This document shows positions 1 through 43,833 of a stretch of DNA of 64,000 bases, in pieces. Below the pieces are notes generated by a model that was not told the origin of the DNA, searched no databases, and was given only the letters and a program-made list of their open reading frames with translations. A program made the position numbers and the translations under genes. Location of the stretch: assembly GCA_032718475.1 (NCBI GenBank), contig JAUCBJ010006844.1, forward strand, positions 39,006 through 103,005. Reading direction: 5' to 3'. The stretch's first letter is position 1, and the number at the start of each line of letters is the position of its first letter. The stretch comes from Nemertoderma westbladi (taxonomy: Eukaryota > Animalia > Xenacoelomorpha).

Positions 1-774
1 AAAGGTAGAAATCATAGTTCGATTGTAATTTGCAGTAATCGAAGGAATTATTGAGAAACACAAGCAAAGTAATCGCACTAGCAAATCATTCCAAGAAATT
101 AATCAAAATTAGCAAATTGCAGAAAATACGATATCCTAATACAAAATTAGAGACAGCTCAGCAAGTAAATTGTAACAGGGGTGTGTCATGTGATAAGGCA
201 TGAACATATGAACAAATATATGAACAACAATATGAACAACAAAAGGCCCTACCGGCACACCGCCAATTTATAGGTGATCCGGATGGGGTGATGCAATAAG
301 GTGACTCAATCGCTCTCCCATTGGCTCTCCAGTCCATGCTAGCATTAAACCAACCTGGAAGCAGTTAATCCAATAAGGAGACCGGATTGTAGCCCTATGC
401 CCTCAAATTATTACCATATATGGTAATGGATCACGTCTCTGGCTGCTGAATGGCCAGGACAGCGTCCCTATATGCTAGCCCTATCAAACTAATATCAGCA
501 AGCACAAAATCCAGGGTCCGAGTAAACTCGCTACCCTGGAACTATCTACATATATCCTAATACAAAATTACGTAGGTAGGGCTACATACTATACAAAATG
601 AATGGATGCAAAATATATGGGCGTTTTAACTTCCTTACCTAAATGTCACCACACTGCGCCTTATCTAAATAATTATACTGCACAACAGACTAATATTACG
701 TACAGTATAACGGACTAATACTGCATACTGCATAATGGACTAATACTGTGGATACAGCGCCATATACCGTAACA
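1..774 (-). repeat. 3' LTR of element A (partial, continues beyond window start)
   Basis: Matches 16848-17621 with one visible mismatch (247 C vs 17094 T). Homology ends exactly at ...ATACCGTAACA (TGT start on - strand). Confidence 0.95.
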
Positions 775-783
775 CCGCTCCAA
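775..783 (-). promoter_or_regulatory. Putative polypurine tract of element A
   Basis: - strand reads TTGGAGCGG immediately followed by the TGT start of the 3' LTR. Confidence 0.6.
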
Positions 784-1264
784 GGGAAATCATATAATGT
801 TTCCCTCCAATTGTAGAAGAGTATAAGGTGATGTATACAAAACAAAATAATTTTCTTCCAACCAATCTAAATAACATAATAATTCTACTATTTACAAATA
901 TTGCCATAGATATTGCATAATGAATTACATACAAATTAAGTTTACAAAATATTATCTCTCTCACTGTTTAACGATTATTACATACAAATTAAATTTACAA
1001 AATATTGTTTCTCGTTCATTCTTACTACATAATGATTACTACATACAAAATCAAATATAAAATTTTTGCTAGGGCAAGTGAAAGGAGTAAGCCAAACCCG
1101 CAGGTTTGTCTCCCCAATCACTTCCTTCGCCTCTTTCATAATATAAATTCAAAATAACTCAACTAGTGTATACGAGTCTAGTCGAAAATTTTCAAATGCT
1201 ACAATATACATCAGAGCGACGATGATGTATATATCTAGAGTCTGTCGCCCTGTGCTATAATGTA

Positions 1265-3247
1265 TTATCGACCCGCTCCTGGGTTCTTTGGGCTCGCTCC
1301 TCTCTTCCGCCCCCTTCCCAGATACACTAATCGTCCTCTAGTCGACTCCGTTGACGGCGTCCGTGAGGCGTCACTCCCCGGAACCGGCGACGACGTTCCC
1401 TGAGCCCCGACAGATTCTCGGCTCGAACTTCTCCCTCGGCCTCGTCCCAATTGTCGCGCTCCCGTGGTCGCTTCCGCCAACTCTTCCTTCTGCAGTTGCA
1501 CACGCGCTTTCTCAGACGCCCCCTGCGCCTTGCGCTGCAACCGTTGCGCTTCTATAATAGAGTGGTAGTGGTCGTCCTTGACTTGACGCTTGTCTTGGAC
1601 CCCTCCTCCTGGTTCTTTCCGCGAGCCTTGAGCTCCAGCGGTCGTCGCTGTGGTCGCTGCGATCCTTTGTTCCTGTATCCTCTCGGCGGTCAATGAACCC
1701 ACTGGCACATGAGTCAACAAGAATTCGTTGCGGTATTGTATAGCCGCCATCCTCCAATCACCTCGCGCGCGTACCACTTTTCTAGTCTCCGTAAATACAC
1801 CCTTCGTGATGCGATCGCAAATAGCAACGAAGTTCCATGTGTACTTATTGTCCATGTTCAATTGTCTGAAGTATTCTCGGACTACGATAACTCCAGTGTT
1901 CTGTGGAAGGTCTTGAGAAGTTAGGATGAGCTCCTGATATTGTGGTAGCGATTGAAGATATGGCTCGTACGCAACATGCGATGGGTCTACCGCCCAAAAC
2001 CCATATCCCGCTTTAAATGGTAACCAACGCATCTGCGCTTGAATATGGTAATCCGCCACACTCTCCCACTTATCTAACATCTCCCGAAGTAGGTTAGCGC
2101 TATGGTTTTGAAAGGAATCATCTCGCAGCTGACATCTCGCGCTACGGTGTCCTTTTACTCCACAATATCCACATTGAGAAATGAAGACGGTGCACGTGTG
2201 AAACGAATGGTCGGTCTCATTGCACCAACGACAGACCTTATGCGCCGCCTCTATTACCGCGTCGCACGACTTTAGATTGTGCCTTGTGCTGCCGCACAAT
2301 TTGCACCTACGCGCTTGTGGAAACCAGGCCCTCTCGTATATGAGGTCTCCAATCGGTTTCGCACTTCCTTCCTTCCCAATGTCTAATACGATGTCGTCCT
2401 CTCCGGTCAACGGTTGTCGATCCGGAACAAAGTAAACATCCTCGCCCTTGTCCTCTATCTCCAATATTTCCTCCCGCGTTCGTTTCGGATATGTCTTCTC
2501 CACCGGAAGATCTACTCCGAACACCTCTACTAAAGTCTCCGGCCAGCCCTCCTTAACAGGTCTATCAGCCTCCGAGTGGAAGGGAGTACCAAACCCGCGG
2601 GTTTGATTCCCGAACCACTTCTCCAAAGCTTCTGGCGTCGGATATTCCATCGACGGTCGGTCTCCCAAATCTCCGATGTTCTGTCGATATACTCCTTCGA
2701 ATATCGCTAATCCTCTCCTCACCATCGACGTATTCTCTAACGACTGGTTGAAGAACGGGGTTAAGAAACGCTTCATCACGTCGGATTGGATTCCCCCTTT
2801 CGAGCGAACGTATTGATCTCCTCCGAATACCAATGGATGACGCTTCAAAACTCGCGCAACGATATCCGCTAATAAACAAGTCACCGTGTTCGACTCAAGC
2901 ACCAAATAATATTGTAGCGACGCACGGGGTGGCGCGCAAATGTTCCAATACACTAACGCTTGCCGCTTGAAGTGGGATTTGAACTCCGCTCCCGGTGGCG
3001 TGTTGTATTCGCCATACGCCTCCTCGTACTTCTTTTGCGTCTTCAACTTAAAGTCCCAATTATACAACAAGTGTGCTATAAAGCCCATACCAGTCTTGGC
3101 AGAGTTGGGATACTCCCTATAAATTCCAATATCCTGTGCCCATAGCAACAATAGCTTGGTGTCGACAAACGGTCTCGGCAATCTATCTTCCAGATCAGTC
3201 ATGGCGTTGAAGTCGCTCTCCAAATCGCTCTGGACTCCCGATCCCAC
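1265..3247 (-). CDS. ORF3 of element A, C-terminal part: second half of DEDDy (WRN/EXD-like) exonuclease domain, three CCHC zinc knuckles, RG-rich tail
   Basis: Frame is open upstream of the annotated start (VREAILNQDYVKVGSGVQSD, ExoII-like). PFVDT, GMGFIAHLL and W...LQYYLVLE (ExoIII-like) follow. Knuckles: CKLCGSTRHNLKSC, CRWCNETDHSFHTC, CGYCGVKGHRSARC. Confidence 0.85.
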   Translation of the reverse strand: MGSGVQSDLESDFNAMTDLEDRLPRPFVDTKLLLLWAQDIGIYREYPNSAKTGMGFIAHLLYNWDFKLKTQKKYEEAYGEYNTPPGAEFKSHFKRQALVYWNICAPPRASLQYYLVLESNTVTCLLADIVARVLKRHPLVFGGDQYVRSKGGIQSDVMKRFLTPFFNQSLENTSMVRRGLAIFEGVYRQNIGDLGDRPSMEYPTPEALEKWFGNQTRGFGTPFHSEADRPVKEGWPETLVEVFGVDLPVEKTYPKRTREEILEIEDKGEDVYFVPDRQPLTGEDDIVLDIGKEGSAKPIGDLIYERAWFPQARRCKLCGSTRHNLKSCDAVIEAAHKVCRWCNETDHSFHTCTVFISQCGYCGVKGHRSARCQLRDDSFQNHSANLLREMLDKWESVADYHIQAQMRWLPFKAGYGFWAVDPSHVAYEPYLQSLPQYQELILTSQDLPQNTGVIVVREYFRQLNMDNKYTWNFVAICDRITKGVFTETRKVVRARGDWRMAAIQYRNEFLLTHVPVGSLTAERIQEQRIAATTATTAGAQGSRKEPGGGVQDKRQVKDDHYHSIIEAQRLQRKAQGASEKARVQLQKEELAEATTGARQLGRGRGRSSSRESVGAQGTSSPVPGSDASRTPSTESTRGRLVYLGRGRKRGASPKNPGAGR

Positions 3248-3278
3248 CTTGACGTAATCTTGGTTGAGAATAGCCTCT

Positions 3279-4973
3279 CTAACCTTCTTTGGGTAACATC
3301 CTGGCGTCGATACGCTCCGCTCCGTGCATACCTCCTCGCCTGCATACCTCCAAAATCTGTTCCCTAGGATCCTTCCCCTTCCGATATTGTGTCGTTATGA
3401 TGGGCTCCGGTCTCTCTCTATCCGCCCTCACAAGCATAAACACATGAGTCACACCATCGGCCGCACGAATTTGAATACACTTGCTGGTCAAACATTCTTG
3501 ATGGGACCCTCCTTCATTGTCGTAGAACATCACCCTCCAATCCTGCAGTGATTCCTCCGTTTTCCTCCACTGACGCTGAATCTCATCTGATGGGGTCCAC
3601 ATGCGCTCGATCGCCTTGTGGTCATCATATCGGGTATAAGAACCCTTCCTCCTCAGCCACGTCTGGTCTACCTCCTCGTCGTCTGGGAATGTAGCCACCG
3701 CGACCCATACCTTGATGTACTTATCCAACCATCCGAATAACTTACTCTCCTTCCCCGGAGCTCCAATCTTGTCCAAAGTGTCGTAATCTGTGATCTGCAT
3801 TGGGACATCATGCAAGAACTTCGCGCATAAAACTTCCCGTAGACAGTCAACGTTCCAATGGTCCGCCATTCTTACCATCGGCAAGAATCGTATCGCTTCT
3901 CGCGACTCCGGATGATCTACTAATATCGCAGGTTCGGTACCGTCGGAATAATACACCGGTCCGGGTTGAGATACGACCTGTGGAACAAATCCGGTCACTC
4001 TCCTCGTCTCCTCTTGATGTCTATCCGCGGTCTTATTATACTCCGCTATCCTGTTCTCAAATAACTCCTTCGCCTTCGCCGCTCGCTCCTCCTGCCGCAA
4101 CGCGTCTATGTCGTCCTGATGCTCAGGCGTGAGGCTTCTCACTCGGTGAGGTGAAGTAAACGCAGTCCAGGGACTCGAGAGCTCCAAACCCGCGGGTTTG
4201 GTACCCGAGTCCCGCGCCGCTTCGCGCCGCGCCTCTAGATCCTTGTAGGCTCGGTACAGCGAAATGGCCGCTGCCGTCTCTATCAAACTGGGTGTCGAAC
4301 AGGGTTTAATCTCCGTATACGGATCTAATGTCGTAACGGTCGGCGTAATGGGTCTCGGAGGTCGCTTTCCGCTGAAGTCGATACTGATCATCGGGTTGCT
4401 CATCGGGTAACCTCCCTCGTTGTATCTAAGGAATTGGTGAGCTGGACATCGCGTTAATATCGGTTCCGGATGTTGCTCGTCTAGTCGGTCGGGAATCGCC
4501 ACGTCCTGTTTATTCATGCATTCACCACACTTGTAGAAGAGCTTGTATACGCTGAAGACTTTCGGCGTCTCCTGATCCTCGCCTCGAGTCCTCCGATACA
4601 GGTGCATTCCGTCGAACTGGTCTCGGACTGCAGGTAGAGGCTCCTCGTGTCGTAAATACATATTCATATGGTATAGTCGTGCGATTTCCTCGTCCGGATC
4701 TGCGCTAATGTCGCACACGTCCAAAGCAAAGTCGTAGGGATACCGCGTGCGATACTCTCTCCGCAAGACTTCCATCCGGTCCCCCAACGCTCTCATTCTT
4801 TCTCTCCGTAATTCTTTATCATAACTTGGTTTATACTTCCCGTTCGGCTCCATCACGGACCGCCCATGGTAGTAAACGTTAGAGTCTTTACATCCTGGTC
4901 GCGCGAATGGTAGCTCCGCCTCCTCTCTGGCAGTAAATCCTCTGCGCGGTTGCGCTCTAATATCCCTCTCCAT
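3279..4973 (-). CDS. ORF3 of element A, N-terminal part: CxxC...CxxH module and start of DEDDy exonuclease (YDNEG)
   Basis: 564-aa ORF with clear blockwise homology to 61495-63705. ExoI-like FYDNEG...CIQIR...THVF. Joined to 1265-3247 by removing 1 nt near 3282-3285. Confidence 0.85.
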   Translation of the reverse strand: MERDIRAQPRRGFTAREEAELPFARPGCKDSNVYYHGRSVMEPNGKYKPSYDKELRRERMRALGDRMEVLRREYRTRYPYDFALDVCDISADPDEEIARLYHMNMYLRHEEPLPAVRDQFDGMHLYRRTRGEDQETPKVFSVYKLFYKCGECMNKQDVAIPDRLDEQHPEPILTRCPAHQFLRYNEGGYPMSNPMISIDFSGKRPPRPITPTVTTLDPYTEIKPCSTPSLIETAAAISLYRAYKDLEARREAARDSGTKPAGLELSSPWTAFTSPHRVRSLTPEHQDDIDALRQEERAAKAKELFENRIAEYNKTADRHQEETRRVTGFVPQVVSQPGPVYYSDGTEPAILVDHPESREAIRFLPMVRMADHWNVDCLREVLCAKFLHDVPMQITDYDTLDKIGAPGKESKLFGWLDKYIKVWVAVATFPDDEEVDQTWLRRKGSYTRYDDHKAIERMWTPSDEIQRQWRKTEESLQDWRVMFYDNEGGSHQECLTSKCIQIRAADGVTHVFMLVRADRERPEPIITTQYRKGKDPREQILEVCRRGGMHGAERIDARMLPKEG

Positions 4974-5728
4974 TATGTTACGCGTATATACATATATATA
5001 TATCCCAATAAGTGCCGTTACGTAACCAACTACACTGTGGGTAAATCAGTTAGATGCCGCCGAAGGACAGACCTCCCGAACCCCCCCGCCTTCCAGCAGT
5101 TCAGGTTCGACTCTCTAGATCCCGTCTCTTCCTAACTAACTATCCTCTAACCTATTCCCATGCATAGCGCAAAACTTTGGAGATAAACTGGCCGTGACCA
5201 ACTCACTTTTTGATGCCCAAACTACTCCCATTACTCCTACTAAACTACAGTAGTTAGAAAGGACCATAGCCACAATACTCGACTATACCAAACCCACAGG
5301 TTTGATAATCGAACATCACACATCCTGCAAACTACTGAGTGGGGTCCATGTACGCCTCTGGTGCTACTAACCTTTAGCACCCTAGTTGCACTGTTGGCAC
5401 CAATCTGTGGAAGTTGCTAAACTCAATTTACACTCCTACGTAATATAGCCGTCACCATGGTTTCTAAATGCTATTTTCCAGGCTTCACGACTTTTCAAAT
5501 TACTGTTATCTATAGACGAATTCTAAAACGCGTCTATACCCAGCGTCTGGAATTGTCTTGGGTTCACTTCTAATTTTTAAAATTTTCTAATTTTCCAAAA
5601 TTTTGAAAATAAAATTTTGTTTTGATACCCACCAGACAAAACTCAACGCAAATCACCACAACCCCGCTCCTATGCATTTCCTTGTATTTGCATACGAGGA
5701 ATGCATACGAAGTGAGTTGCGTCCAACA

Positions 5729-7168
5729 CTAATTCTGTTTTGAGGCAGGAGACAAATTATAATCTCCCGTCTCGATACGTGTCTCCTCTAATAACACAAT
5801 ATCTTGGACCGGTCGGTCCAAGGTGTGTAAACCATTAGTTTTACACTTTTTTGGGTGCGGACACTTGCACCTAATTTTCACAGTGACTGTGCGCACTATG
5901 TTTTGCACGTCTGGGTGTGTGTGCAAGATCACTCCCGTCTCCCAATACTTTCTCTTGACAATGGGTTCGGTTATCAACACGTAATCTCCCCTTTGGAGAC
6001 TCCGAACCGTTTTGTACCACTTTGTTCTGGTGGATATGGTGGGAAGATAGTATTCCCGCCAATATTCCCAGAATGTGTACGCCACTAACTGTGTTACTTT
6101 CCAGCTCTTACGACTATATAGGTCGGCACTAATGGGTTCTGATGCCGGCACAAGAAATGCTGGACTCTGCATTAGCAAATGATTCGGCGTTAATGCAACA
6201 CCGTCTGGCAACATAGCTATCGGCCTCGAGTTTAGGGTATGCTCGATTTCAATGAAAGCTCTGACCAGTTCGTCGTCGGTAAGTTGTTTGTTCACAGGCA
6301 ATGTTTTGGCAATGGCCTGTTTTACAGAGCGAACTAAACGCTCCCAACTTCCTCCTCTCCAAGGACTTTCTGGAGTATTAAATCTCCACTCTACTCGTTG
6401 CGGCAAAAGTGCTGCAGAAATTTCCTTATTCTGTGCTGCTTTATGAGCCGCGTTCAACTCGCTATTCCCTCCGACAAAGTTTGTACCCTTGTCAGAGTAG
6501 AACGCCTTTACTAGTCCTCTCCTGGCCATAAATCTCTTTAAGGCCAGGAGCAGAGATTTAGTCGACATGTCTGCCACACGCTCGATGTGTATGGCTCTAC
6601 TCGCCATACATGTCAGTAGCAGACCCCATCGTTTGTGGGTCAGCCGTCCACTCTTTGCTTCAATCGGACCAAAACAGTCCACCCCTGTGTTCGTAAAGGG
6701 TGGGTCATATGCCTGCACTCTCGCTTCCGGGAGTTCAGCCATCTCCTGTTCCAATACTCTGGCGTTCACCCTCTTGCAAACCAGACAGGCGTCGTACATA
6801 GTGCCGACTGCCCTGCTTGGCTGCAATAGAATGAATCGCTGTCTCGCTGCCGACAGACAGTGTAACTTTCCCGCGTGATGCAACCTCTTGTGTATATCCC
6901 ATAGAATCGCTCTTTGCAATTCTATTGGGTGACTAGGGATTATCACTGGGAACCGAAACTGTGAGTTTATGTCGACAGTCTGGATTCTCGATCTATGACA
7001 AATCAAACCCTTATGGATTAACGGACTCCATTTTCTAAGGGGTTTATAGAGAACTGGTCGTTGAGCCGATAATAGATGGAATTCTTTCGGGAAGGCACAC
7101 ATTTGATAATGCTTCAAATGCTTTAATTCCGCTTGATCAATCTCATCCTCTGTCAGAGGTTGTTTCAA
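5729..7168 (-). CDS. Integrase of element A (in frame with gag-pol behind a single TGA)
   Basis: H..LHH...CLVC zinc motif, VDCFGP, SDKGTNF, WERLVRSVK (DDE core), BEL-type C-terminus (YLPTISTRTKW). Same frame as 7178-14167. Confidence 0.95.
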   Translation of the reverse strand: MKQPLTEDEIDQAELKHLKHYQMCAFPKEFHLLSAQRPVLYKPLRKWSPLIHKGLICHRSRIQTVDINSQFRFPVIIPSHPIELQRAILWDIHKRLHHAGKLHCLSAARQRFILLQPSRAVGTMYDACLVCKRVNARVLEQEMAELPEARVQAYDPPFTNTGVDCFGPIEAKSGRLTHKRWGLLLTCMASRAIHIERVADMSTKSLLLALKRFMARRGLVKAFYSDKGTNFVGGNSELNAAHKAAQNKEISAALLPQRVEWRFNTPESPWRGGSWERLVRSVKQAIAKTLPVNKQLTDDELVRAFIEIEHTLNSRPIAMLPDGVALTPNHLLMQSPAFLVPASEPISADLYSRKSWKVTQLVAYTFWEYWREYYLPTISTRTKWYKTVRSLQRGDYVLITEPIVKRKYWETGVILHTHPDVQNIVRTVTVKIRCKCPHPKKCKTNGLHTLDRPVQDIVLLEETRIETGDYNLSPASKQN

Positions 7169-7177
7169 TTTCCGAAT

Positions 7178-10100
7178 TCACTCACTATTGGCGCTCGATG
7201 GTTCTCTCAAATGTTTCGAATGTTTTAAACAAAGGTACGAAACGTATCGGCTCAACCACGCAGTTCTTTTACAAATTGTCAGCCAAGAGGCAGACGAATT
7301 TAGTAATTTGTCATAAACACTGCATGACTCTAATGCCAGCGACGGTTGTCCGCTAACCAATGGAAGTTTCGAATCCAAACCCGCAGGTTTGGAAACCAAA
7401 GGCTCCATTGTGTCGGTCATTTTCTGTCCGTCACTTACCAATTGTGACTGTCGTCCAGTCTGTAAGGGTGGTTTTATGTCATAACTTACCCTTCCTGACC
7501 TAGTAGTCACGTAAGTCTGTTGGTCTGACAGGTCTCCGGGCCGCTCCAATAACTCTTCAGGCCGCTCCAATGACTCTTCAGGCCGCTCCAATGACTTAAG
7601 TTTGGCTTTAGACTTTGACTTAGAGACTTTCTCCACTTTGACTTCTGCATCTTCAGGCATCGGATTGGTCACTATCTTTAGTCGCTCTGGCCAATGTTCC
7701 TGTGTCCTCGTTAGAAAATTAGGTCCATGTAACCAAAACTCCTGCGACTCTTCCTGACAGAATTCCGCTGGCATTGCAACTCTCGAAGTTATGTCGGCCG
7801 GGTTCAACACTCCCGGACAATGTCTCCATTGTTCCTTCGTCGAAAAATCAACGATCTGAGCGCGTCTATTGGCCACAAATGTCTTTAGTGCAATATTGTC
7901 GGCCGCAATGTATACTAACACCAAGGATGCGTCCGTCCAATAGAATAAGGTCAATGTCGTATCTAATTCCTCAGTTATCTGCTTACTTACCTCGACTGAA
8001 ACTACAGCCGCCTGTAACTCTGCACGAGGGACAGTCATGTATTTGACCGGCATTGTCTTTGATCTAGAAGTCACAAAGGCCGTCTCAAATTTGTCCTGAC
8101 TTACCTCTCGGCGAAGGTAGGCTACCATACCAAAGCCGGTGTCACTTGCGTCACTGAACAGATGCAGCTCTAAATCAGTTGGAAATACCAGCTGATTCGG
8201 AAAGTAGGAACGGGGTACATCTATATTTTTCAACAGATGCAACTCGGCTTCCCACTCCCTCCACTGCTTTGCATGTATAGGAGATATTGGTTCGTCCCAC
8301 TCTAAGTCGGACAACCAAATTTTCCTCATGCACGCTCGTGCCTGTAATATAACCGGACTGATAAAGTTCATCGGGTCAAATAGTCTACTTAAAGTCGATA
8401 AGCAAATTCTCTTTGTCAAAACTTTGTCTGGGCTACTGGGCTCAAATCTAACTCTTACCTGGAACTTATCCGAATTCGGATTCCAAGCGAGTCCCAGTAC
8501 TCGCGCCATGGGGATTGGTTCTACCCCCAATTCTATGTCTCCGCTCCCGCGATCTTTTACCGGGAACGATTCTAATAGGGCCTCCGAATTAGTAGTGAAC
8601 TTGGTCAGAGGAAATCCCCCTGTAGCCAAGCACTCTTGCAGGCCGTGAGCCACTTCTATGGCTTGTTCCGCCGTGTCCTTGGACACCAATCCGTCGTCCA
8701 TATAGAAGTTTCTCAAGATAGACTCGATTACTTCTACTGGATACTTACCAATCTGGGCTGTTGCCGTTTTCTTTAGAACGAACAGCGTGCCATTCGGACT
8801 ATCGCGGGCGCCAAATATCCTAACGTACATTTGGTATATAACCACTGGGCCGGATAAGTCTTCATTCTCAAACCAGAGAAAGCGAAGGCTATCCTGGTCT
8901 GCCTTACAGGCTCTTACCTGGTGGAACATCGCCTCGATGTCACAAGTAAATGCGAATCGCCGCTGTCTAAAACGCAACAGTATTCCTATCAAATAGTTAT
9001 TCAGGTTGGGACCATCCATCAACTCTGAATTCAGGGACATACCTCTATAGACTGCTGCGCAGTCGTTGACTACTCGGACTTTGTCAGGTTTGTCAGGGTG
9101 AGTCACATAGTGGTGTGGAAGGTAATAAGTCTGGTCTGTCACTAAGTCAGGGTCCTCTACCTTCCCAGCAAATCCCTTGGCGAAATAGTTGTTGATCTGG
9201 GCGCAATACTTCTCCCTAATGTCTGGATTCTTCAACAACCGAGCCCTTACTCCGTTTAATCTTTTCAAGGCTAAGTTGTAGTTGTTCTCCAACTTAGGTG
9301 GTTGTCGACGCCACAACATTCCAACTTCAAAATGTCCAGTCGGTAGCAGACGTATGGTGTCTTCCATCATCTCCAACGACCGTTTTTCATCAGTAGACAT
9401 GGCTAGGTCATATCCACCGGGTTCCATTGCGTCCCTATCCAGCCATTCGACGGTTCTGGCTCCTGTCTCGAGGTCCTGGCGTATCAATTCCTTCTGTAAT
9501 TCCTCCTCACTGTATTGGAAAATGTCTAGGTCTCGATATTTAGCCACTTGACCCTCCACTATGTCTGTATAAGTCAAAACGTTAGTCAAATAAGTAGCGT
9601 GGGCCGCTGAACCAGACCCACGGGTCTGATAACAGTAGTCCTCGGGTTCACTATCTGTCCGGTCGTTATGAAGTGGTTCCGACAACCTAACATTATCGGG
9701 AATCAACTCCTCGTCCGACTCGCTAAAGTCACTATAGTGGTCAATACAGGTTCTCCTAAACTCGTCTATGTCTGGTGGTTCTACTAACGGTGGTTGAGTT
9801 ATAGGCTGTAATTCGTCGTATCTGTTCATTGGCTTGTCGCCACCTGTAAACTCATAAGACATAGGTACTCTTGTATACCAACCTAGTATGGTCCTATGGG
9901 CATGTGGTCCATTGACATGCGGCTCAGCTGGTCTCGTTTCCCATATTTGGTGTGCGATCAGCTGTTCTGCACCAATCAACATAGAAACATTCCTATAACC
10001 TACCTGGTGTCTTGGTACTCTGAGCTTGTCAAAATACTCCTGTGCTATGGGACTCATCGGCGGCACCTTACCTAACTGCCTGCCGAATCCCTTCATAGCT

Positions 10101-13100
10101 AGACACTTAAATCCGTCCAATGGCAAAGCTTTCCGTTCTTGTCGAGTGTGTTGGTCTCTCGGAAGTAGGGAATCTAGTTCTACCGAAATTCTGTGTCCCT
10201 TGAGGTCTCCTACCCCGTGCATAGACTTCAACTCTATTTGGATCTCCTCGGCGTCCTGGAAGCTAGAAACGGCTCTCGCCACTTCCTCGTCGATATACGA
10301 TAATGTGGACGCAGTGTCCAACATCACATATATTCGCTTTGATCCCTTATCGCCAGTAAGTTTCACCGGAATCACGCTAAATATTTCCGACGTGGCCGAT
10401 GATAAATACGTCCGTGCGCTGGTCGATGAACTATCCGCGGTGAAACCTTGGCAGGTCACTTCTCTCGCGCTCGACTCGCCATCCTCGTCCGACGAACCTG
10501 GTTGGTAACCATCGTCCTGAATGCCGGTATACGTATTCCTCCTTATCGATACGGGTTCTTTGCTCCCCTTCCTTTGAGGATTTCGCTGTAAGTAACGGTC
10601 CGTCGGGGTGTGGAAATCCGCATGTAGCAACTTGTGATGTAGTCTGCCGCATTCCATGCATCCGTCCTTGCTGTTCGGGCACTGCCGCCGTACATGACCT
10701 GGCGCAAGACATGCCCAACAGGTGTCCAACGTCCGCACTTGAACTCTTCTCTGTTCCGAATTTAATTCTTTGAACCGTCTGCAACTATCTAACTTATGGT
10801 CGTCAGATCTTACCTCCTTTAGTAAACAGTATTGGCAACCTACAAATCCATCCGGCAACTCCTGTTGCTTTAACCTAGGTCTATCTAACCGCTCACCTGA
10901 CCATACTCGCGAGTCTGATCTAAAGGCTGGGGTACTCGAATTATATCTGTCTACTGAGTTAAATGTCACAGTGGTCCTGTCATCGTCAAAACTTACCATA
11001 GACTTACCGGTAACAGGTTTAGACTCCCTCATATTCTCTTCTGAGAAGTTTGATTTCATCTCTGCTACTGCGTCTGTGGCTATCATGTCATGAATATGCT
11101 GAAGTGTCAATACTTTACCTTGGCCCTCCAACTTATTCTCTAATTTACGCCATTTCTGTCGATAACGCATGTTTAAACGTCTTATTACGCTTTTCAAAAC
11201 TTCGGCGTGATCACCATGATGAGGTAGATTCACCGTCCTCAAGATGTCCAATGCGTTCGAAATAGCGTTCGCTAAGTTCAACAGCTCTAACGGAGTTGTA
11301 ATCCTTCCGCCCTTACCCAAGTCTTCTACTATCGACTGCGCCATCTTCGTTTTATTCCCGTAGATGTCACTAAGCGTCTTCATCGCTAACTCGAATGCCC
11401 TTTCATTGCCGACGAAGTTATCAGCAATGGCTCTAGGTTCTCGATGGAGCATCTGAAGCAAATAGTTGAACTTCTCGTTGGGAGTAAAGGTGCTGTTGGT
11501 TAGCTGCTCGTCGACATAGGTTTTGAAGGTCCTCCAGTGCTTGTGGTTGCCCATAAACTTCTGGGGTTGTTGCGTCGGCAGTCCTTGCCTAGCAGCAAAC
11601 TTACCTATGTCCCTAAGGGTTGCGTCGTTCCGGGTTAACAAATGGTTTAGTTCCGCAGGGTTGTTAAGTCTGGTCCTTTCCCGGTGGTTCCAACTTACCT
11701 GCTCCGCGTCGGTCCTTCTTTCCTTATAGTTTCGGGACTTCTGACGTCTCATGTCTTCCTCTTCATCACTCGATTCTGTGTCAGTCCTTAGCACTCGCGA
11801 TGGTTTGCGCGCTGAGGCCCTGACCCAAGCGTCCTGAATAAATTTCTCGGCCGAATTTTCGAAATTGGGATTAGAGATGTTCGGGACAGGCGTCCTTACC
11901 TGAGGTCTATGTGGTATAGTCTCCTCCGATATGCGTACTCGTTGACTAGGCTGGACTTTATCTAACTCAGGCCTGCTAGGATTTGAATTACTTCTTACCT
12001 GGGCTGCTTCCTTTAACCGTAGGTTGCTAAGCATGTCCGTTATAGGTTGGATGTGCGGCGATATAGCTTGCGCTAAACTAGCACTTAACTCATCCCTCGT
12101 AATAAATTCCTGGCTAGGGTTCTGTTGTATAGTCGGCTCTATCTGAGTAATCCGCTGTCTCTCATATGATCCCTCTTCCGGTTTAACCCGGAAGTTCTCC
12201 GTCGAACTGGGTCGGCGCTCCGTCCGCGTATTCCAAACCCGCGGGTTCGGTTCGCCCAATACTCGGCCCGTCGGAGTTTCTTCTCTAAATTCTTCGTTGT
12301 CGCGTTCGGTGTATAGTGGTGCGGTGTTCTGATGCCGTGGATTCTGCGCGATAGGTGAAGCACTAATACCAACTGGCGTGCGATATGTAGAGAATGGTTT
12401 AGCGATCCGTGTACTCGTAATAGCTGGACCGGGTATAGGAATTCTGGTCGTCGTCGACTCGCGTATGGTCGGAGTTCTCGCTTCCTGTTCGGCCTTCTGC
12501 AGTGCGAACAGTTCTCGCAACTCTGTCCCTACACTCGCCCCACATTCTTCGATCATTCGCATCCCCTTCTCGGCGATTTCGTTCGCCTTCCTAGTCCGTT
12601 CTTCGCTCTCTAAACTTAATCTCGCACTTTCCAACTGCGCCAGTTTACGCTCTTCTTCTTCCCTCGCTCGTCTCGCTGCGCTCTCTTCTTCCACTCGCGC
12701 CTTTTCTTCATACAATGCGCGTCTTCTTTTCTCGATCTCGAGTTCGCGTTCCTTGCGTCCGCGTTCGAGTTGAAGCTCGCGCTCCTTCTGTTCACGATCG
12801 AGTTTCTTGCGCTCGCGTTCGGCTTGGAGTTCGCGTTTCTTCGCTTCCTGTTCGCGTTCGAGTTGGAGTTCGCGTTTCTTCGCTTCCCGTTCGCATTCAA
12901 GTTGGAGTTCGCGTTTCTTCGCTTCCCGTTCGCGTTCTCTCTGTTCGCGTTCGAGTTCCTCGCGCTCGCGCTCGGCTTGGAGTTCACGTTCCCTTTGCTC
13001 GCGTTCCGCTCGCTCGCGCTTACTTATCTCTTCCAACTCTCGTAACTCTGCGTCCAACTTACGTGTGCGCTCCCGTTCCCGCTCGGCTTCCTTCCGTGCT

Positions 13101-14167
13101 TCCTGTGCACGCAAAACTTCCGCCTGCTGTTCGTCTAGTCGGCGTCTTCTCTCCTCCGCCGAGTTGTGAGAAACAAGGGATCTAGCACATATTACCTTAC
13201 CTCGCGCGTGACTAACCTGGGAATCGCCGCTGTCTCTAGATGCGTCGTCGGGTGGAGTCAACGTCCTCTGTTGAATGTTCTCCGTCGTCGGTAGCACCTG
13301 GCCTGGTACCACCACTCCATTCTGCATCAGCCAGCTAGTAACTTCCCTCTGATAACGGCGCTCTTCCTTATCTTGGATCTCTTCTCGCTCCACTAACTCT
13401 CTCAACTCTGCGTCACTCACTTGAGTCGCCTGCGCTTGTGATGCCCATAGCAGCCAGTTCTCCGTCCTAACTCGTCGGAATCGCTCCGATAACTCGCGGT
13501 GCTCCAACAAGGCTGCTAAAACCCTGTCGTAAATCCTCGTCGCCACGTCGCTCGACTGAGACTCTACTGCCTTCTTCGCTAGGACTGCAAGCTCCTCCGT
13601 CTGCTTGAATAACGCTGAGTTATATCCTCTTCTAATCTCTACTAACTCTACCCTCCCGATGTTCGCTGGGTCAGCTAACATCTTCCTTACCTTGTCCGCC
13701 GTCCGGGTTATATGTCCGGCATGCGCGCGAAGTTTCTTCTTTATCGCGATATCGAACTCTCTATCACTCACCTGACTTACGCTCGGTGGACTTGAAGGAT
13801 TATTTCGGGAACTACGGGTACTCCTAACAGCCGTCGGGACCACGGCACTTACCATACCCACAGGTCTGGAAACCGGGCTCCGGGCTCTCGCTTCTGCTAC
13901 ACTACCCTCCCTATCACTCACCTCTGTCCGGGCTGCTGTACAGTCCTTCCTTACAGTAGCGGTAGGGGATCCTAATACTATTACTTGAGGTTGTTGTTCT
14001 TCCTCACTAGTCACTGTCTCGTCCTCCTGTTCACTTACGTCAGCGTCGCTCGCTGCGTCGTCATAGTCGGCATTGTCATCAACAGTAATGTTTACGCTAT
14101 CGTCAGTCGGCGGTCCAGCCGCCGTCTCGTAGCTGTCCTCTAGTGCCTCCTTGTCTGAGACACTCAT
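7178..14167 (-). CDS. gag-pol: BEL/Pao gag-pol polyprotein of element A (coiled-coil, gag, Cys/His motifs, aspartic protease, RT, RNase H)
   Basis: KFMGNHKHWRTF/EKFNYL gag core. CQYC..H..C, CWACLAPGHVRRQC, CMECGRLHHKLLH. LDTAS protease. YYLPHH and YMDD in RT. FSDAS, PRAELQAA, WTDA, NPADITSR in RNase H. Confidence 0.96.
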   Translation of the reverse strand: MSVSDKEALEDSYETAAGPPTDDSVNITVDDNADYDDAASDADVSEQEDETVTSEEEQQPQVIVLGSPTATVRKDCTAARTEVSDREGSVAEARARSPVSRPVGMVSAVVPTAVRSTRSSRNNPSSPPSVSQVSDREFDIAIKKKLRAHAGHITRTADKVRKMLADPANIGRVELVEIRRGYNSALFKQTEELAVLAKKAVESQSSDVATRIYDRVLAALLEHRELSERFRRVRTENWLLWASQAQATQVSDAELRELVEREEIQDKEERRYQREVTSWLMQNGVVVPGQVLPTTENIQQRTLTPPDDASRDSGDSQVSHARGKVICARSLVSHNSAEERRRRLDEQQAEVLRAQEARKEAERERERTRKLDAELRELEEISKRERAEREQRERELQAEREREELEREQREREREAKKRELQLECEREAKKRELQLEREQEAKKRELQAERERKKLDREQKERELQLERGRKERELEIEKRRRALYEEKARVEEESAARRAREEEERKLAQLESARLSLESEERTRKANEIAEKGMRMIEECGASVGTELRELFALQKAEQEARTPTIRESTTTRIPIPGPAITSTRIAKPFSTYRTPVGISASPIAQNPRHQNTAPLYTERDNEEFREETPTGRVLGEPNPRVWNTRTERRPSSTENFRVKPEEGSYERQRITQIEPTIQQNPSQEFITRDELSASLAQAISPHIQPITDMLSNLRLKEAAQVRSNSNPSRPELDKVQPSQRVRISEETIPHRPQVRTPVPNISNPNFENSAEKFIQDAWVRASARKPSRVLRTDTESSDEEEDMRRQKSRNYKERRTDAEQVSWNHRERTRLNNPAELNHLLTRNDATLRDIGKFAARQGLPTQQPQKFMGNHKHWRTFKTYVDEQLTNSTFTPNEKFNYLLQMLHREPRAIADNFVGNERAFELAMKTLSDIYGNKTKMAQSIVEDLGKGGRITTPLELLNLANAISNALDILRTVNLPHHGDHAEVLKSVIRRLNMRYRQKWRKLENKLEGQGKVLTLQHIHDMIATDAVAEMKSNFSEENMRESKPVTGKSMVSFDDDRTTVTFNSVDRYNSSTPAFRSDSRVWSGERLDRPRLKQQELPDGFVGCQYCLLKEVRSDDHKLDSCRRFKELNSEQRRVQVRTLDTCWACLAPGHVRRQCPNSKDGCMECGRLHHKLLHADFHTPTDRYLQRNPQRKGSKEPVSIRRNTYTGIQDDGYQPGSSDEDGESSAREVTCQGFTADSSSTSARTYLSSATSEIFSVIPVKLTGDKGSKRIYVMLDTASTLSYIDEEVARAVSSFQDAEEIQIELKSMHGVGDLKGHRISVELDSLLPRDQHTRQERKALPLDGFKCLAMKGFGRQLGKVPPMSPIAQEYFDKLRVPRHQVGYRNVSMLIGAEQLIAHQIWETRPAEPHVNGPHAHRTILGWYTRVPMSYEFTGGDKPMNRYDELQPITQPPLVEPPDIDEFRRTCIDHYSDFSESDEELIPDNVRLSEPLHNDRTDSEPEDYCYQTRGSGSAAHATYLTNVLTYTDIVEGQVAKYRDLDIFQYSEEELQKELIRQDLETGARTVEWLDRDAMEPGGYDLAMSTDEKRSLEMMEDTIRLLPTGHFEVGMLWRRQPPKLENNYNLALKRLNGVRARLLKNPDIREKYCAQINNYFAKGFAGKVEDPDLVTDQTYYLPHHYVTHPDKPDKVRVVNDCAAVYRGMSLNSELMDGPNLNNYLIGILLRFRQRRFAFTCDIEAMFHQVRACKADQDSLRFLWFENEDLSGPVVIYQMYVRIFGARDSPNGTLFVLKKTATAQIGKYPVEVIESILRNFYMDDGLVSKDTAEQAIEVAHGLQECLATGGFPLTKFTTNSEALLESFPVKDRGSGDIELGVEPIPMARVLGLAWNPNSDKFQVRVRFEPSSPDKVLTKRICLSTLSRLFDPMNFISPVILQARACMRKIWLSDLEWDEPISPIHAKQWREWEAELHLLKNIDVPRSYFPNQLVFPTDLELHLFSDASDTGFGMVAYLRREVSQDKFETAFVTSRSKTMPVKYMTVPRAELQAAVVSVEVSKQITEELDTTLTLFYWTDASLVLVYIAADNIALKTFVANRRAQIVDFSTKEQWRHCPGVLNPADITSRVAMPAEFCQEESQEFWLHGPNFLTRTQEHWPERLKIVTNPMPEDAEVKVEKVSKSKSKAKLKSLERPEESLERPEELLERPGDLSDQQTYVTTRSGRVSYDIKPPLQTGRQSQLVSDGQKMTDTMEPLVSKPAGLDSKLPLVSGQPSLALESCSVYDKLLNSSASWLTICKRTAWLSRYVSYLCLKHSKHLREPSSANSE
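12720..13050 (-). repeat. Coding tandem repeats (~39 bp) producing the E/R/K-rich coiled-coil of gag
   Basis: Repeated GAGTTCGCGTTTCTTCGCTTCC units, translated as AKKRELQLERE-type repeats. Confidence 0.85.
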
Positions 14168-16847
14168 AGTCTAAATAATGTTTGCCTTCCGGCAAAATAT
14201 CTCGCAAAAGTTCGAGATATAATTATAATTTAACCGAAATACGGTCAAATTATTTGTCAAATAATCAGTTGGTCCAAATGTCAAAAATAAATTCGCAATG
14301 CAATATTGTGAATTTAATGGGGTATATAGTTATAGCAAATACTAACACAATATTTAAACAAAATATTATTATATAGCTACTATATAATATTAAATACCGG
14401 TATAGCACAAAATAACTTTTGAATCTAATACAAAATATTCAAAATAAACTTGCCACCCGAATATTTCTAATTTTATATATAGCTCTAATCAACGTAATTT
14501 TAATTTCAAATATTATATGTATCCACTAGCGCGTGGCTACATCTTCGGGTTGCGACTCTCTCTAACTCTCTCTCTAACTTGAGCGATTCAAAAAACCATG
14601 GCCGGCTAAACCTAAATATCCTAACTAATAAATTGAGTTCAGCTTCGCAGTTAAACAACCGGTAATTTTTTACTGCTTCCACAAACACAGTGGTGCCAAC
14701 AGAACAACTAACCTTGTTTGCTGTGAGATTCCACGTCCGCGTCCAAAGATTCAGGCCCTTCGCTGATTGCAAACCGAACCCGCAGACCCACACGAACCCC
14801 AAACTCAGAAGTTCCGTCTTGCCATGTATCTCCAGATGGTATAAAATAACTAAGCGGTTACCTAACATACCGGTACAAAACTCTAGAATTTTACAAAATA
14901 ATTTTGACCGAAAACTGAATTCTCGCAAACCTAGCTAAAATTTTCAAAAAACTTACTAATTACTGTTTGCCCTAAGGCCTAAGGAACTGCTGTATTCGCA
15001 ATTAGCAAAACGCACTACCGTACATCCACTGTATGCAGTACAGTAAGTAAAACAGTACACCAACCTAACAGCCTAATGATACTGTGTGTGGTACGGCAAA
15101 CAAATGTCCCTTCTACCGTACGCAGTAACAACAATCAGCCTAATGTACTACTGTACTATTGTACGCAGCCAGTGAATACAGTAATCTAAACTAACAGCCT
15201 AAAAGAATATACTCAATGTTCTACCGTACGCTAGCCTATAGCCTACAGCAGACGATCACGTGCTCTAACTTATTACTTAATACTGTGATACTACTATCAG
15301 CCTAAGAATACTATATTGACCGCTGCAAGCAACAGCCAATAACGCGTATTACTGATACGAAGTATCAGTAATCTAAACTAACAGCCTAAGAATACTCTAT
15401 TTACTGTACGCTACAGCCTACAGCAAACAGTGCGCGTATTACTGATAAACAACCGCGACCTCTATACTAACAGCAGAACTGTTGAACAGACCAATACCCG
15501 TTAATATCCTTCTGCCAACCTAATAAGTTCTTGTCTAACCAATAAGACACAAAGACTGCTCTACTGTTAAGTAAAGGGGCTCAGGAGCGTGATATTACTA
15601 AATTGTAAGGGTTGCTAAATACAAAACCGCTACTTACCGTTAGATGGCGCTAATCTGCCGTCCACTAATATATTTTACTAATTTTACACAACTCCTGCAA
15701 AATCGCTTGTTCCTTTCTCTACCGATTGCTCAATAGAGAGCTAACTGTTCGAATCTATGAGCCACGCGGGAATAACCAAAACAATAAACCCGAGTCGGCT
15801 CCCTAAGCTTACTTAAGACGAGTGCGAGAGGCCTTGCACTCAGAGTATTCTTACGCCTAATTTTATCACTATTAAAGCACGCTATTACCTACGTCTTTCT
15901 AATCGCGAATACTGGAGGTTCCCTAACGTAATGTGTGAATGCGAGAATATTTAAAATATCAAAATGGTACAGTATCTGTTTCTACGTGGATAATACCACT
16001 CCGAGTCTAAAACTGCCCGCGACTGGCTTTAGGCCAGCAAAATTACTAGCGTATCGTGCGTACCGAATAGTGCGTTCTAGCTGATTGCCCGCTAATGCAA
16101 ATAACCGCTCAGCGTGAATAGTTTACAGTACACTAATTATTACCTTAGCTACTCTCCGCTATGCTGCGTACTAATTCTTAATTTTTTACTAATTAATTAC
16201 AGTCACAAATATTTAACAGCGTACTAATTACTAAGAGTTCCAGAATACGTAATTCTAATTTATCACGCAACAGGTTTCGCTAGTAATAGCCTAAATTGCC
16301 GTATTACTTTGACCTAATCAATAACTAATTATTGTAACTAAGAAATAGAAATCAATCAAAGGAAAAAGAGCGCCTATCTAAGCATTCGTAATCTTAGGCA
16401 CACTTCAATAACACACCAATCAGCGTTAGAAATCACAGTTTACAATTGTGCAATTCACTACTCGTACTCCACACTCAACGTTTTAATACGCGCAGGCCTC
16501 TCCCGGGTACATCTAGGATTCCTAACTAACCCAATTCCTGCCCCCCTAATACTAAATAGAGACAAAACCTGGATCATCAGCCCCCTAGATACTGTACCGG
16601 CGATCGGTCTGCGTGCCGCAGTGCAAGATACCCGCCCGCAACGGTGACCCTGGCCAGCGTTGCCCGCTTTGAATCCTCCGCTCTCTCCTAGTCGCTCAAC
16701 CCCCCGATGCGCCCACCGCCCACTGGCACCTTAGCCCTCCATGATGCTAATAGCTACCGTAGCGGCGCATGCAAATCACAAAGTCTGACAGTCTCAGGAA
16801 TCCCTTGGGATTATTGCGCAGAAAAGAATCACATAGAACCATCAATC

Positions 16848-17621
16848 AAAGGTAGAAATCATAGTTCGATTGTAATTTGCAGTAATCGAAGGAATTATTG
16901 AGAAACACAAGCAAAGTAATCGCACTAGCAAATCATTCCAAGAAATTAATCAAAATTAGCAAATTGCAGAAAATACGATATCCTAATACAAAATTAGAGA
17001 CAGCTCAGCAAGTAAATTGTAACAGGGGTGTGTCATGTGATAAGGCATGAACATATGAACAAATATATGAACAACAATATGAACAACAAAAGGTCCTACC
17101 GGCACACCGCCAATTTATAGGTGATCCGGATGGGGTGATGCAATAAGGTGACTCAATCGCTCTCCCATTGGCTCTCCAGTCCATGCTAGCATTAAACCAA
17201 CCTGGAAGCAGTTAATCCAATAAGGAGACCGGATTGTAGCCCTATGCCCTCAAATTATTACCATATATGGTAATGGATCACGTCTCTGGCTGCTGAATGG
17301 CCAGGACAGCGTCCCTATATGCTAGCCCTATCAAACTAATATCAGCAAGCACAAAATCCAGGGTCCGAGTAAACTCGCTACCCTGGAACTATCTACATAT
17401 ATCCTAATACAAAATTACGTAGGTAGGGCTACATACTATACAAAATGAATGGATGCAAAATATATGGGCGTTTTAACTTCCTTACCTAAATGTCACCACA
17501 CTGCGCCTTATCTAAATAATTATACTGCACAACAGACTAATATTACGTACAGTATAACGGACTAATACTGCATACTGCATAATGGACTAATACTGTGGAT
17601 ACAGCGCCATATACCGTAACA
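16848..17621 (-). repeat. 5' LTR of element A (minimum extent; inner boundary not determinable)
   Basis: Identical to 1-774 except one base. Begins TGT at 17621 and abuts an RTE relic. Confidence 0.95.
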
Positions 17622-18360
17622 AAAGGAGATTTCGGTATACCAACAAACTATCGTGGGATCTGTCTGCTTGTGGTAATTGCAAAAATATACAACAACAATG
17701 ATTCTATATAGGATTAGGCCTCACATAGCAGCAGAAACTACTGCGTAAGAGCCAAAACCGATTTCGACCAAGTAGATCAACAATAGCTCAGATACTTGCA
17801 CTACGGAGAATGAATGAGGGACTTAAATCAAACGATCTCCCCAGTCCTGAAATTTGTGGACTTTAAGAAATCATTGGACTCCATCCATAGAGGTAAAATG
17901 ATGGGAATCCTATGACCTTATGGAATACCATAAATAATTGTCGCTGGCATATGATTGTTATATTGTGACACAGAATCTCAGGTACTCTCACTAGATGTTG
18001 AAACAGGGTTCTTCTCAATCCTGGCGGGTGTACTGCAATGTAACATATTGGTGCCATTACTATTTGTAATTGTACTGGATTATGCAATGAGGATGGAAAT
18101 AAATGGTGAAGATCTGGGATTCACACAACAAGAATGTAGAAGTAGCAGATATCCGGCAACTACAGTCAACCGACTTCGCAGATGACATCATACCACTCTA
18201 TAATAATGCAGGATTGCATATGAATGCTACTACGATCAAATTAATAACTTTTAATGTTGATGGAAACTTGACAAAAATCGATAATAATCAACTAAGGAAG
18301 GTCAACGATTTCCAGTACCTTGAGTGATGGATAGAGAGTAGCAAAAATGATATAGAAATG
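17622..18360 (+). pseudogene. Degenerate RTE-clade LINE reverse transcriptase fragment (target of element A insertion)
   Basis: Translates in pieces to KGDFGIPTNYRGI...ILAGVLQ...DFADDI...DFQYLE. Clearly similar to the reverse complement of 42400-43190. Confidence 0.9.
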
Positions 18361-18959: not shown

Positions 18960-20167
18960 ATGTTCTTACCAGAACATTAAACAAAGTATATTTATGGCCT
19001 ACTGTGCAATCGAGAAACTGAAATCTATTAATGTGCGCGCTTTTAGACTTTTAGCAGTTTAACCTGCCAATTTTAGTTGTCCTCTTGTTTATAAATCGAC
19101 TTTAGCCTATATCAATTACTTAGTGTACTGAAGTTACATCAGCCGAAGCCAGTCTGTGCGCGACCTTTCACCCACGGTTTTGGGAGACTGGATTCGGATT
19201 CCTTGAGAGTTATTGCAGTCTAGACCTACTGTATTATTTGATTGATATTTACGATATAATCTCTGACAATATATTTACTTTCGGGGAAATATTAACAGTT
19301 CCTTTAGGACGTGGCGCTTTAAGTATAAAAACAGAGTTATGACTTATACTAATCACAACTAGATGGCCACAGAGTTTCGTAAATAGCGCATTCTTTAGGA
19401 GATGATTTATTAACCTTCACACTACTTCACACTGCTTCACACTACTTCACACTACTTCGCACTGATCTGCCGACCGTCACTGAATTTGATCATATATAAG
19501 GAGGATCACAACTGACACATGTAGGGATTATGAAATAGCATTTAATTCACACAAAACCAATATTATGTAAGTTGCAGTTGCTACCGGTAAACCTGTTCCT
19601 CTTACCTCAGTAATCAATAAGATTGGGGTGTTTATGATTATTTATCGGTATTCTCCAAATATAACAGCAATATCCATTAATATAACAACAATTAATAACA
19701 GAAGTAAAATAATACGGTGAACAGTCAGTATGTGTTACTTATGCAGGTAAAAACCATAATGTTCAGTAGAATGACAAGTAAGTAATAATCCAGGTAGGTG
19801 AGTTAAGTTAATAGATTTATGTTCTTATAATCAAGGCCATCTGATGTTTCCTAGGCCAAAGTCTGAAACTTCTACACCGAAGCACAGAAGATTCCGAGCC
19901 GGTTCTGATGCTCAGAAAAAAGTAAACAAAGACCGTAATGCATTGCGTGAGTTTCCATAGGCCTCTGTTAGACATAAAGGGAAAATCGCTCTGATTGGCT
20001 GAATAGGCAGAACAAAGAGGTTCCACGTCCACAAGAAATCAGCTGACAGATTTCGTCATCTGGGCTCTAATTCCTTCCCGTCACGCAGTTGGATAAATTT
20101 AGGGCTATTTTAGAGTATTCTGCGCATTGCGGAAAAATGACTTGTTATGTCCGCAAAAGCTTTTACA
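18960..20167 (-). mobile_element. LTR relic of a family related to element B, inverted orientation
   Basis: - strand begins TGTAAAAGCTTTTGCG, like 47467. Shares blocks such as GCGCACAGACTGGCTTCGGCT, CCTAAAGGAACTGTTAATATTTCCC and GGTTAAACTG with 47467-49860. Confidence 0.8.
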
Positions 20168-20984: not shown

Positions 20985-21300
20985 TAGGGTGGATCGAATT
21001 TTGCCAAAGTTGGAAATCAAAGAATGGCTAGTGCTAAAAAGTGGCACATGGGCTTAAGAACTATGCATGCAAAATATTTTTTAATTTGGTTAAGTCCTTG
21101 CTCCCCCCCAAAGCCTCTGAATTTTGATAAAGATAGGCGCGATAAGGTGGTAGTAAATCGGCTAGACTATATGAAGGTTATGGCACTTGTAGTCACTCCC
21201 TTGAGCTCACTTTGGGCTCATTCAAAGCGCATTGGTCGATTTAGTTATTCAATATTTCGTTTCTGGGCATGGCAGCCACTATTTTCCTCACTCTGCTCAT
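20985..21300 (+). repeat. Left terminal inverted repeat (imperfect, ~300 bp)
   Basis: Reverse-complement match to ~25130-25443, strongest in the outer ~140 bp. Confidence 0.85.
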
Positions 21301-23424: not shown

Positions 23425-23451
23425 CAAATATTACTATCGGACTTCCAGGAG

Positions 23452-43791: not shown

Positions 43792-43833
43792 ATATTGTTT
43801 TCGTTTGGGTTTCTGGGGGATATGCCTCTTAGC

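Follow-up and report, generated by a model that had tools for sequence, protein, structure and literature searches.

In long terminal repeat (LTR) retrotransposons and in retroviruses, the known cis-acting signals cluster close to the 5' end. Here we describe a Bel/Pao LTR retrotransposon, element A, with nine copies of a sequence-conserved predicted hairpin along its length; it lies on the minus strand at positions 1-17621 of a 64,000-nucleotide (nt) stretch of the Nemertoderma westbladi genome (GenBank assembly GCA_032718475.1, contig JAUCBJ010006844.1, positions 39,006 to 103,005 of the forward strand), which we call the window. A hairpin conserved in sequence every 1-2 kb through coding sequence is another design, that of a short-range signal which must be repeated. 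In the literature searched, with most subscription papers and supplements lying outside the search, no evenly spaced hairpin array was described for an LTR element.

The closest described systems each share some features with element A. Single-stranded RNA viruses (MS2, picornaviruses and the hepatitis B pregenome; PMC6281560) have dispersed packaging signals, in which, as in element A, many stem-loops of varying strength with one shared motif run through coding sequence; element A differs in being an LTR retrotransposon and in that its nine copies are far more alike and evenly spaced, and capsid binding could be carried over to it only by analogy. The HIV-1 SL2/SL3 and dimer initiation site (DIS) and the Moloney murine leukaemia virus SL-C/D (PMC7599994), together with the Ty1 PAL signal (PMC4974528), resemble the hairpins of element A in the tetraloop with guanines at its second and fourth positions (G2 and G4), the bulged stem, the pseudo-palindromic core and the presence of CCHC knuckle proteins, but the retroviral packaging (psi) and dimer signals and those of Ty1 cluster in the 5' leader, whereas those of element A are spread from the beginning of gag as far as the 3' untranslated region, with none in the leader. 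The bdelloid LTR elements Juno and Vesta carry after pol an open reading frame (ORF), ORF3, for a DEDDy exonuclease, a type of gene whose role has been open since 2017 (PMC5408684). Element A likewise has an extra gene after pol with an RNase D-like exonuclease, but it is a Bel/Pao element, its gene is much longer, and three CCHC knuckles follow downstream; in the main text of that paper neither ‘hairpin’ nor ‘stem-loop’ occurs. Signals bound by Egalitarian, including the I-factor signal ILS, also have upper and lower helices, a bulge on the 3' strand and contact with an exonuclease-homology domain (a contact that in element A is supposed by analogy), but in that system (PMC13186709) the protein belongs to the host, the signals share no sequence, and a transcript has one or two of them. 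Finally, the VANC/VANDAL system combines a family-specific repeated motif with an accessory gene in the same transposon, but that transposon is a DNA transposon and its motifs are described as double-stranded DNA words in tandem, non-coding arrays without structure (PMC5735166). The analogy with VANC drawn by an earlier reading of the bare letters (the sequence-only reading) therefore fits poorly, the motifs of element A being single, structured and mostly in coding sequence.

All eight copies listed by the sequence-only reading are present at the coordinates it gave (17 nt as written there), and a ninth, more diverged copy at 10902-10917 keeps all 10 invariant columns (Table 1). This ninth copy is the weakest member, with a leave-one-out score of 12.0 bits vs. 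12.7 bits for the best non-member of the window (full matrix). A possible tenth copy near 3918 (12.7 bits) was left out, as its 3' arm is broken and the covariance model does not match it. In all nine copies, 10 of the 60 aligned columns are invariant, including G2 and G4 of the loop and the G that directly follows the 16-mer on its 3' side. When a loose pattern was fitted to the copies, it matched 9 sites in element A and 0 in window positions 17701-64000, compared to a mean of 0.003 and a maximum of 1 in 300 dinucleotide shuffles. The ORFs hold 7 of these sites, compared to 0 sites in 482 and 1 site in 18 of 500 synonymous-codon shuffles. Because such patterns are fitted after the fact, a blind search for dispersed 16-mers was added as a control; the hairpin word has 8 copies vs. 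at most 4 for any other word in element A or in element B, a second Bel/Pao element of the window. A covariance model built from the nine copies finds nothing else in the window below E = 0.3, except the opposite strand of the same sites, and Rfam gives 0 covariance-model matches at E up to 1 in window positions 1-18000. The proposal made from the letters, that the constraint is on the nucleic acid rather than on the protein, is supported (at most 1 copy in the protein-preserving shuffles against 7 seen), and the seven coding copies use all three reading frames. We conclude that the hairpin array is real and apparently selected. The exact motif also has 32 single matches in viral contigs, with no second copy within the 3-kb flanks, and these were treated as chance matches. 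The histone stem-loop, iron-responsive and selenocysteine-insertion elements show no sequence likeness to the hairpins and no Rfam match.

The 16-nt tetraloop hairpin of the sequence-only reading stands as an 8-bp upper stem with a YGYG loop, but the structure is larger, about 45-55 nt; pairing of the conserved stem is general (66 of the 72 cells pair, for 8 bp in nine copies), with a G-A mismatch in two copies (10902 and 13853). The compensatory A-U to G-C double change at 9612 and the G-U wobble at 12233 that it pointed out were both confirmed. Three of the 8 upper-stem pairs change on both sides, a value reached in 13 of 500 shuffles (a count that is not a probability), and sense-strand pairing has 5 G-U against 0 A-C. 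Below the upper stem there is a two-base excess on the 3' side, followed by a lower helix whose sequence is specific to each copy. The lower helix pairs best at this +2 register, at 31 of 45 positions, compared to a mean best of 24.7 when flanks are exchanged (p = 0.004), and it has 24 Watson-Crick pairs at +2 vs. at most 15 in nine other registers. The wobbles favour the sense RNA, to which the sequence-only reading assigned the hairpin, although the flank-shuffle energies given below do not tell sense from antisense. For five copies the predicted fold is far more stable than in shuffles (z = −3.6 to −5.3, in windows chosen after viewing), and the two helices with the 3'-strand bulge are clear in about 5 of the 9. 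Flank-shuffle energies support the extended stems, and the unconstrained version of that test is weak (Stouffer z = −2.3 for sense, −3.0 for antisense).

A double-stranded DNA palindrome bound by a dimeric, VANC-like anti-silencing protein would account for the commonest core, which is a perfect 16-bp palindrome, and for a motif that is family-specific and evenly spread in an element without CpG depletion (CpG observed/expected 0.8-1.35 in element A vs. 0.1-0.65 in the window satellite). Such a DNA site, however, needs no lower helix of changing sequence at a fixed +2 register, no double changes and no sense-strand wobbles, and we consider it improbable. The loops also speak against it, as all seven loop changes are C-to-U on the sense strand (C-to-T in the DNA) and none are G-to-A (two-sided p of about 0.016 by simple count); CpG decay would affect both strands. 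The tandem, non-coding placement of the VANC motifs (PMC5735166) is a further difference.

The loops seen comprise only four YGYG variants, and any YGYG loop can pair with any other via C-G or U-G. The hairpins might thus act by RNA-RNA pairing, in which loops kiss, hairpins open into duplexes and two genome copies are zipped together in register, like a repeated HIV-1 DIS. The duplexes are predicted to lie 7-20 kcal/mol below two hairpins on the sense strand, and when the lower stems are counted the average is −14.7 for self pairs and −6.5 for cross pairs; moreover, the dimer sites of retroviruses are pseudo-palindromic and have bulges in their stems, and kissing of a tetraloop is possible with two G-C pairs (PMC7599994). 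Nevertheless, any hairpin gains energy as a duplex, so that these energies are only a consistency check, and pyrimidine-only variation of the loops needs no selection (p = 0.19 for 7 all-transition changes at the transition share of the family). Given also that self-pairing does not demand the same stem sequence at nine places, and that known dimer sites are few and 5'-proximal, we regard this explanation as unlikely.

With the ninth copy included, the gaps between successive hairpins are 1497, 1595, 1104, 2087, 2237, 1289, 1332 and 1619 nt, with a mean of 1595 nt and a coefficient of variation of 0.24, which is significantly more even than random placement (p = 0.0002, and p = 0.0014 for the original eight copies). 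Seven of the 9 copies lie inside ORFs, and every copy is single. The five copies in gag-pol sit where the mean identity to 120 homologues is 0-0.10, a level shared by 48% of residues (p of about 0.03), and the integrase and reverse transcriptase fall within the two longest gaps. From this we infer that selection placed the signal at intervals, wherever the protein allows. Tolerated insertions would be found in the same places, and four copies look decayed, as might be expected if the hairpins were neutral remnants, left by a very small mobile insert or by template switches in the course of reverse transcription. We consider such an origin highly improbable in view of the even spacing, the conservation of hairpin 4 across diverged contigs (below), the absence of copies outside element A in the window, and the conservation of the centre but not the ends, which is the reverse of a miniature inverted-repeat element. 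A contig found in sequencing runs X1 and X3 joins position 4700 to position 9591, where hairpin 6 is bordered, through 36 letters of other sequence; it may come from a derivative with an internal deletion, or it may show a hairpin in a different location.

In two DNA runs from different studies, 22,543 and 10,190 contig pieces align to element A and cover all 30 bins, which points to a large family; one of the two runs may derive from the same source as the window, and no RNA run was among those listed for the element. Conservation could be compared at one copy, the intergenic hairpin 4, with contigs from 3 of the 7 listed runs, and at that position the expectation that the motif is kept in other family members gained support. 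These contigs have 32 variable places in 5190-5410, of which 2 fall among the 37 positions of 5279-5315 and 30 among the 184 positions outside (Fisher p = 0.063, and p = 0.041 in the better covered part); compared to its nearest flanks, which were chosen afterwards, hairpin 4 gives p = 0.0008. The two inner variants are a pyrimidine swap in the loop and a change of the base beside the bulge. Contigs in two runs end at 5278 and 5315, the edges of hairpin 4, and loose contig ends at 1066 and 1138 in three runs bracket hairpin 1. One diverged contig, its variant rows grouped by a shared depth value, has 34 differences in 204 nt and keeps 5 of 5 outer pairs on the sense strand, one of them by a double change, whereas on the antisense strand 2 of 5 outer pairs form in the window and 3 of 5 in the diverged contig. 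Because transitions at G-U keep pairing by default, the pairing kept on the sense strand is modest evidence.

The accessory gene of element A lies in two pieces, ORF2 and ORF3. In element B, the frame of the homologous ORF continues past one stop into sequence that matches the end of ORF2 (E = 2e-6) and the start of ORF3 (E = 5e-7) of element A, so that ORF2 and ORF3 look like parts of a single gene some 1,200 codons long, which in this copy of element A is interrupted near 3290. An exhaustive search found 8 relatives of the accessory protein at E = 1e-10 to 3e-4, of which 7 clearly show the exonuclease-like region and all 8 have the knuckles and the conserved C-terminal block. A profile of the accessory protein and these relatives matches the EXD2 exonuclease (E = 4e-5, and 1.4e-6 without the window rows), Lin28 and retroviral knuckles, and, in both domains, PDB 7c45, which we take to be trypanosome RNase D. 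The EXD2 and knuckle matches support the earlier proposal that the accessory gene combines an exonuclease-like domain with knuckles. The four acidic positions of such exonucleases are retained, namely D and E of motif I (in both A and B), D of motif II, and E instead of D in motif III, with the motifs assigned by eye after DEDDy patterns. Single-sequence Pfam, NCBIfam and PDB searches for the exonuclease were blank, word-index searches with ORF3 and ORF2 gave no matches, and atlas matches were all below 0.9. Foldseek ranks EXD2 first for a structure model of ORF3 (E = 0.66, none at E = 0.001 or better, model pLDDT 54), and the model of the element B exonuclease piece (pLDDT 34), with no structural match, is uninformative. 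A match to rotavirus VP4 (E = 0.009-0.012) was rejected, as the family profile does not recover VP4. The relatives form an unnamed protein family (P0121-P0128; L033:79-2022) with an EXD2-like exonuclease, three CCHC knuckles and a C-terminal block outside Pfam; in P0121 the knuckle module is present twice.

Element A thus encodes two knuckle arrays, one in gag and one in the accessory gene, and we predict, with roughly even chances, that a zinc-knuckle protein of the element's own making docks at the hairpins. In GGAG and GGUG tetraloops, G2 and G4 are the bases bound by the knuckles of the HIV-1 nucleocapsid (PMC7599994); here, a pair of knuckles would hold the two loop guanines that never vary, while the conserved upper stem and the bend that the 3' bulge makes would be recognised by a second surface of the protein. 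Knuckles usually read less than ten invariant bases plus a fixed bulge, and this speaks for the accessory protein, which also has the exonuclease-like domain; in Egalitarian an exonuclease-homology domain helps to bind bent stem-loops with 3' bulges (PMC13186709). The accessory protein is therefore the likelier reader, although we propose it only tentatively, and Gag is a rather doubtful one. From LTR to LTR the distance is 16,847 nt, so that the RNA would be unusually long, at about 17 kb; the bound protein would coat it every 1-2 kb and mark it as the family's own, for export, stability and particle entry. Classical packaging is less attractive, because no copy lies in the leader, whereas the signals of Ty1 are found in roughly the first 500 nt from the 5' end (PMC4974528), and because three or four copies would also be present on a separate accessory message, should one exist. 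We tentatively suggest that an element-encoded exonuclease-knuckle reader and a regular hairpin address together constitute a family-specific self-marking at the RNA level that shields or escorts the transcript. If true, self-marking would assign a role to the exonuclease genes of retrotransposons, so far unexplained, and would be an RNA counterpart of VANC anti-silencing.

Several observations weigh against an element-encoded reader of a selected sense-strand hairpin. Four of the nine copies fold no better than shuffles (z = −1.6 to +0.4), and in flank-shuffle energies the sense strand (Stouffer z = −4.1 to −4.6) is not distinguishable from the antisense strand (−3.7 to −4.3). In the 5' leader (14170-17621) no covariance-model match has E below 8. 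Over the whole aligned stretch the conservation of hairpin 4 is borderline, and 5328-5346 and 5358-5381 nearby are also variant-free; these two stretches lie upstream of ORF2, could possibly be promoter or splice signals for the accessory gene, and include a 7-bp hairpin at 5360-5381. The knuckle matches to Lin28 are generic, and with its four acidic positions kept the accessory protein could just be an enzyme that trims 3' ends and serves some other purpose. In element B, gag knuckles and the homologous accessory gene are present, yet no repeated word or hairpin family occurs in 51400-64000, and a 3.7-kb contig with a relative of the accessory gene shows no such motif either, a weak negative given that about two copies would be expected. 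The absence of the motif from element B, reported by the sequence-only reading, was thus confirmed for 51400-64000, whereas its suggestion that every family with the accessory gene would have a dispersed motif of its own was not borne out by the 12.6 kb of element B that are visible. Neither the accessory gene nor great length therefore demands an array, unless the signals of element B consist of structure only or its gene is without knuckles, which, if present, lie beyond the window end. A contig search for further relatives of the accessory gene found one true locus, that of 3.7 kb, and two knuckle-only matches, which are too short for a test for arrays.

The absence of the motif from element B despite the same accessory gene would be explained if the array instead hijacked a host RNA-binding protein, for export, transport, or protection from premature termination or decay. 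The upper helix, 3' bulge and lower helix also resemble in shape the host signals of Egalitarian, including that of the I-factor (PMC13186709). The Egalitarian signals, however, are without overt sequence pattern, whereas these hairpins keep 10 invariant bases; the motif is also absent from the rest of the window and, as stated above, has no Rfam match, and we consider a host reader rather unlikely. The element-encoded knuckle reader remains the explanation that we favour.

The Bel/Pao assignment of element A is based on a gag-pol layout that combines the Pao peptidase, the DUF1759 gag, DUF5641 and the integrase, on LTRs that both start with TG, on a purine tract before the 3' LTR, and on three gag knuckles. 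With 1 difference in 774 nt its two LTRs are near-identical, which indicates a young insertion. This copy is broken twice, by an in-frame stop that ends gag-pol before the integrase part and by the split of the accessory gene into two frames. Among the integrase relatives found, the best reach 34-40% identity and belong to varied animals, from which the host is probably of a poorly sampled animal lineage; no close relatives were found in the viral or metagenome contigs searched.

Table 1. Features of element A (window coordinates; z, folding energy relative to shuffles)
Feature	Position	Strand	Remarks
3' LTR, cut by window start	1..774	-	short purine-rich tract before it
Hairpin 1, core 1093-1108	1074..1127	-	3' untranslated region; fold z −4.4
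ORF3, 709 amino acids, second accessory-gene piece	1265..3394	-	rest of exonuclease-like domain, three CCHC knuckles, conserved C-terminal block
Hairpin 2, core 2590-2605	2574..2622	-	linker between exonuclease-like domain and knuckles, low-confidence in structure model; z −3.6
ORF2, 588 amino acids, first accessory-gene piece, first exonuclease motif at end	3279..5045	-	homologous to element B 61462-63705, E 9e-13
Hairpin 3, core 4185-4200	4170..4216	-	in ORF2; z −4.5
Hairpin 4, core 5289-5304	5272..5320	-	between pol and ORF2; z −4.4
Purine-rich tract then TG, directly after pol	5659..5672	-	resembles a second polypurine tract; putative role
Integrase part of pol, 482 amino acids	5729..7177	-	Integrase_H2C2, DUF5641
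gag-pol ORF, 2330 amino acids	7178..14170	-	DUF1759, Peptidase_A17; three gag knuckles at amino acids 1112-1183
Hairpin 5, core 7376-7391	7358..7411	-	linker between RNase H region and integrase; z −5.3
Hairpin 6, core 9613-9628	9596..9640	-	linker before reverse transcriptase; A-U to G-C double change; weak lower helix, z −1.2
Hairpin 7, core 10902-10917	10886..10930	-	newly found, diverged; C-G to U-A double change at closing pair; G-A mismatch; weak fold, z +0.4
Hairpin 8, core 12234-12249	12220..12262	-	gag N-terminal region; G-U wobble; weak lower helix, z −0.5
Hairpin 9, core 13853-13868	13834..13886	-	gag N-terminal region; G-A mismatch; z −1.6
5' LTR, matchable part, inner end undefined	16848..17621	-	TG start at 17621; 773/774 nt identical to 1-774

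Other strong sense-strand hairpins occur singly in element A, at 775-834, 5791-5850, 6451-6510, 6586-6645 and 6886-6945 (minus strand); they share no sequence, one (775-834) lies directly before the 3' purine tract, and several are in the integrase. In-frame tandem repeats with 39-nt and 21-nt units lie inside gag-pol at 12813-12937 and 7539-7596, respectively. Summed contig depth over the accessory gene (1235-5329) is about 1/3 to 1/2 of that over pol (5785-12154) in runs X1 and X3; depth is not copy number, and the difference may reflect relatives that are without the gene or diverged there. Element B occupies window positions 51723-64000 on the plus strand, with the accessory ORF running from 61462 off the window; its gag, pol and accessory gene are each interrupted, and no matching 5' LTR was found in the window. 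A plain Bel/Pao element would begin its 3' LTR directly after pol, and at this position both element A (Table 1) and element B (59869-59882, plus strand) have a purine-rich tract followed by TG, which may be a second plus-strand primer or a relic of the gain of the accessory gene.

Elsewhere in the window, the 5' LTR of element A abuts a reverse transcriptase fragment of the long interspersed nuclear element (LINE) type at 17622 (17622-18357), and further LINE-type fragments lie at 42403-44758 (minus strand) and at about 46000-46830. A satellite with a 52-bp unit extends from 26032 to about 41100, in about 290 copies that are 96-98% alike and strongly CpG-depleted. A probable DNA transposon at 20985-25443 has inverted repeats of about 330 bp around ORFs at 21862-24717 (no Pfam match) and an internal 562-bp duplication. 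A tandem duplication of 1,178 nt with 99.6% identity lies at 47456-49813, and a related inverted copy is found near 19006-19653.

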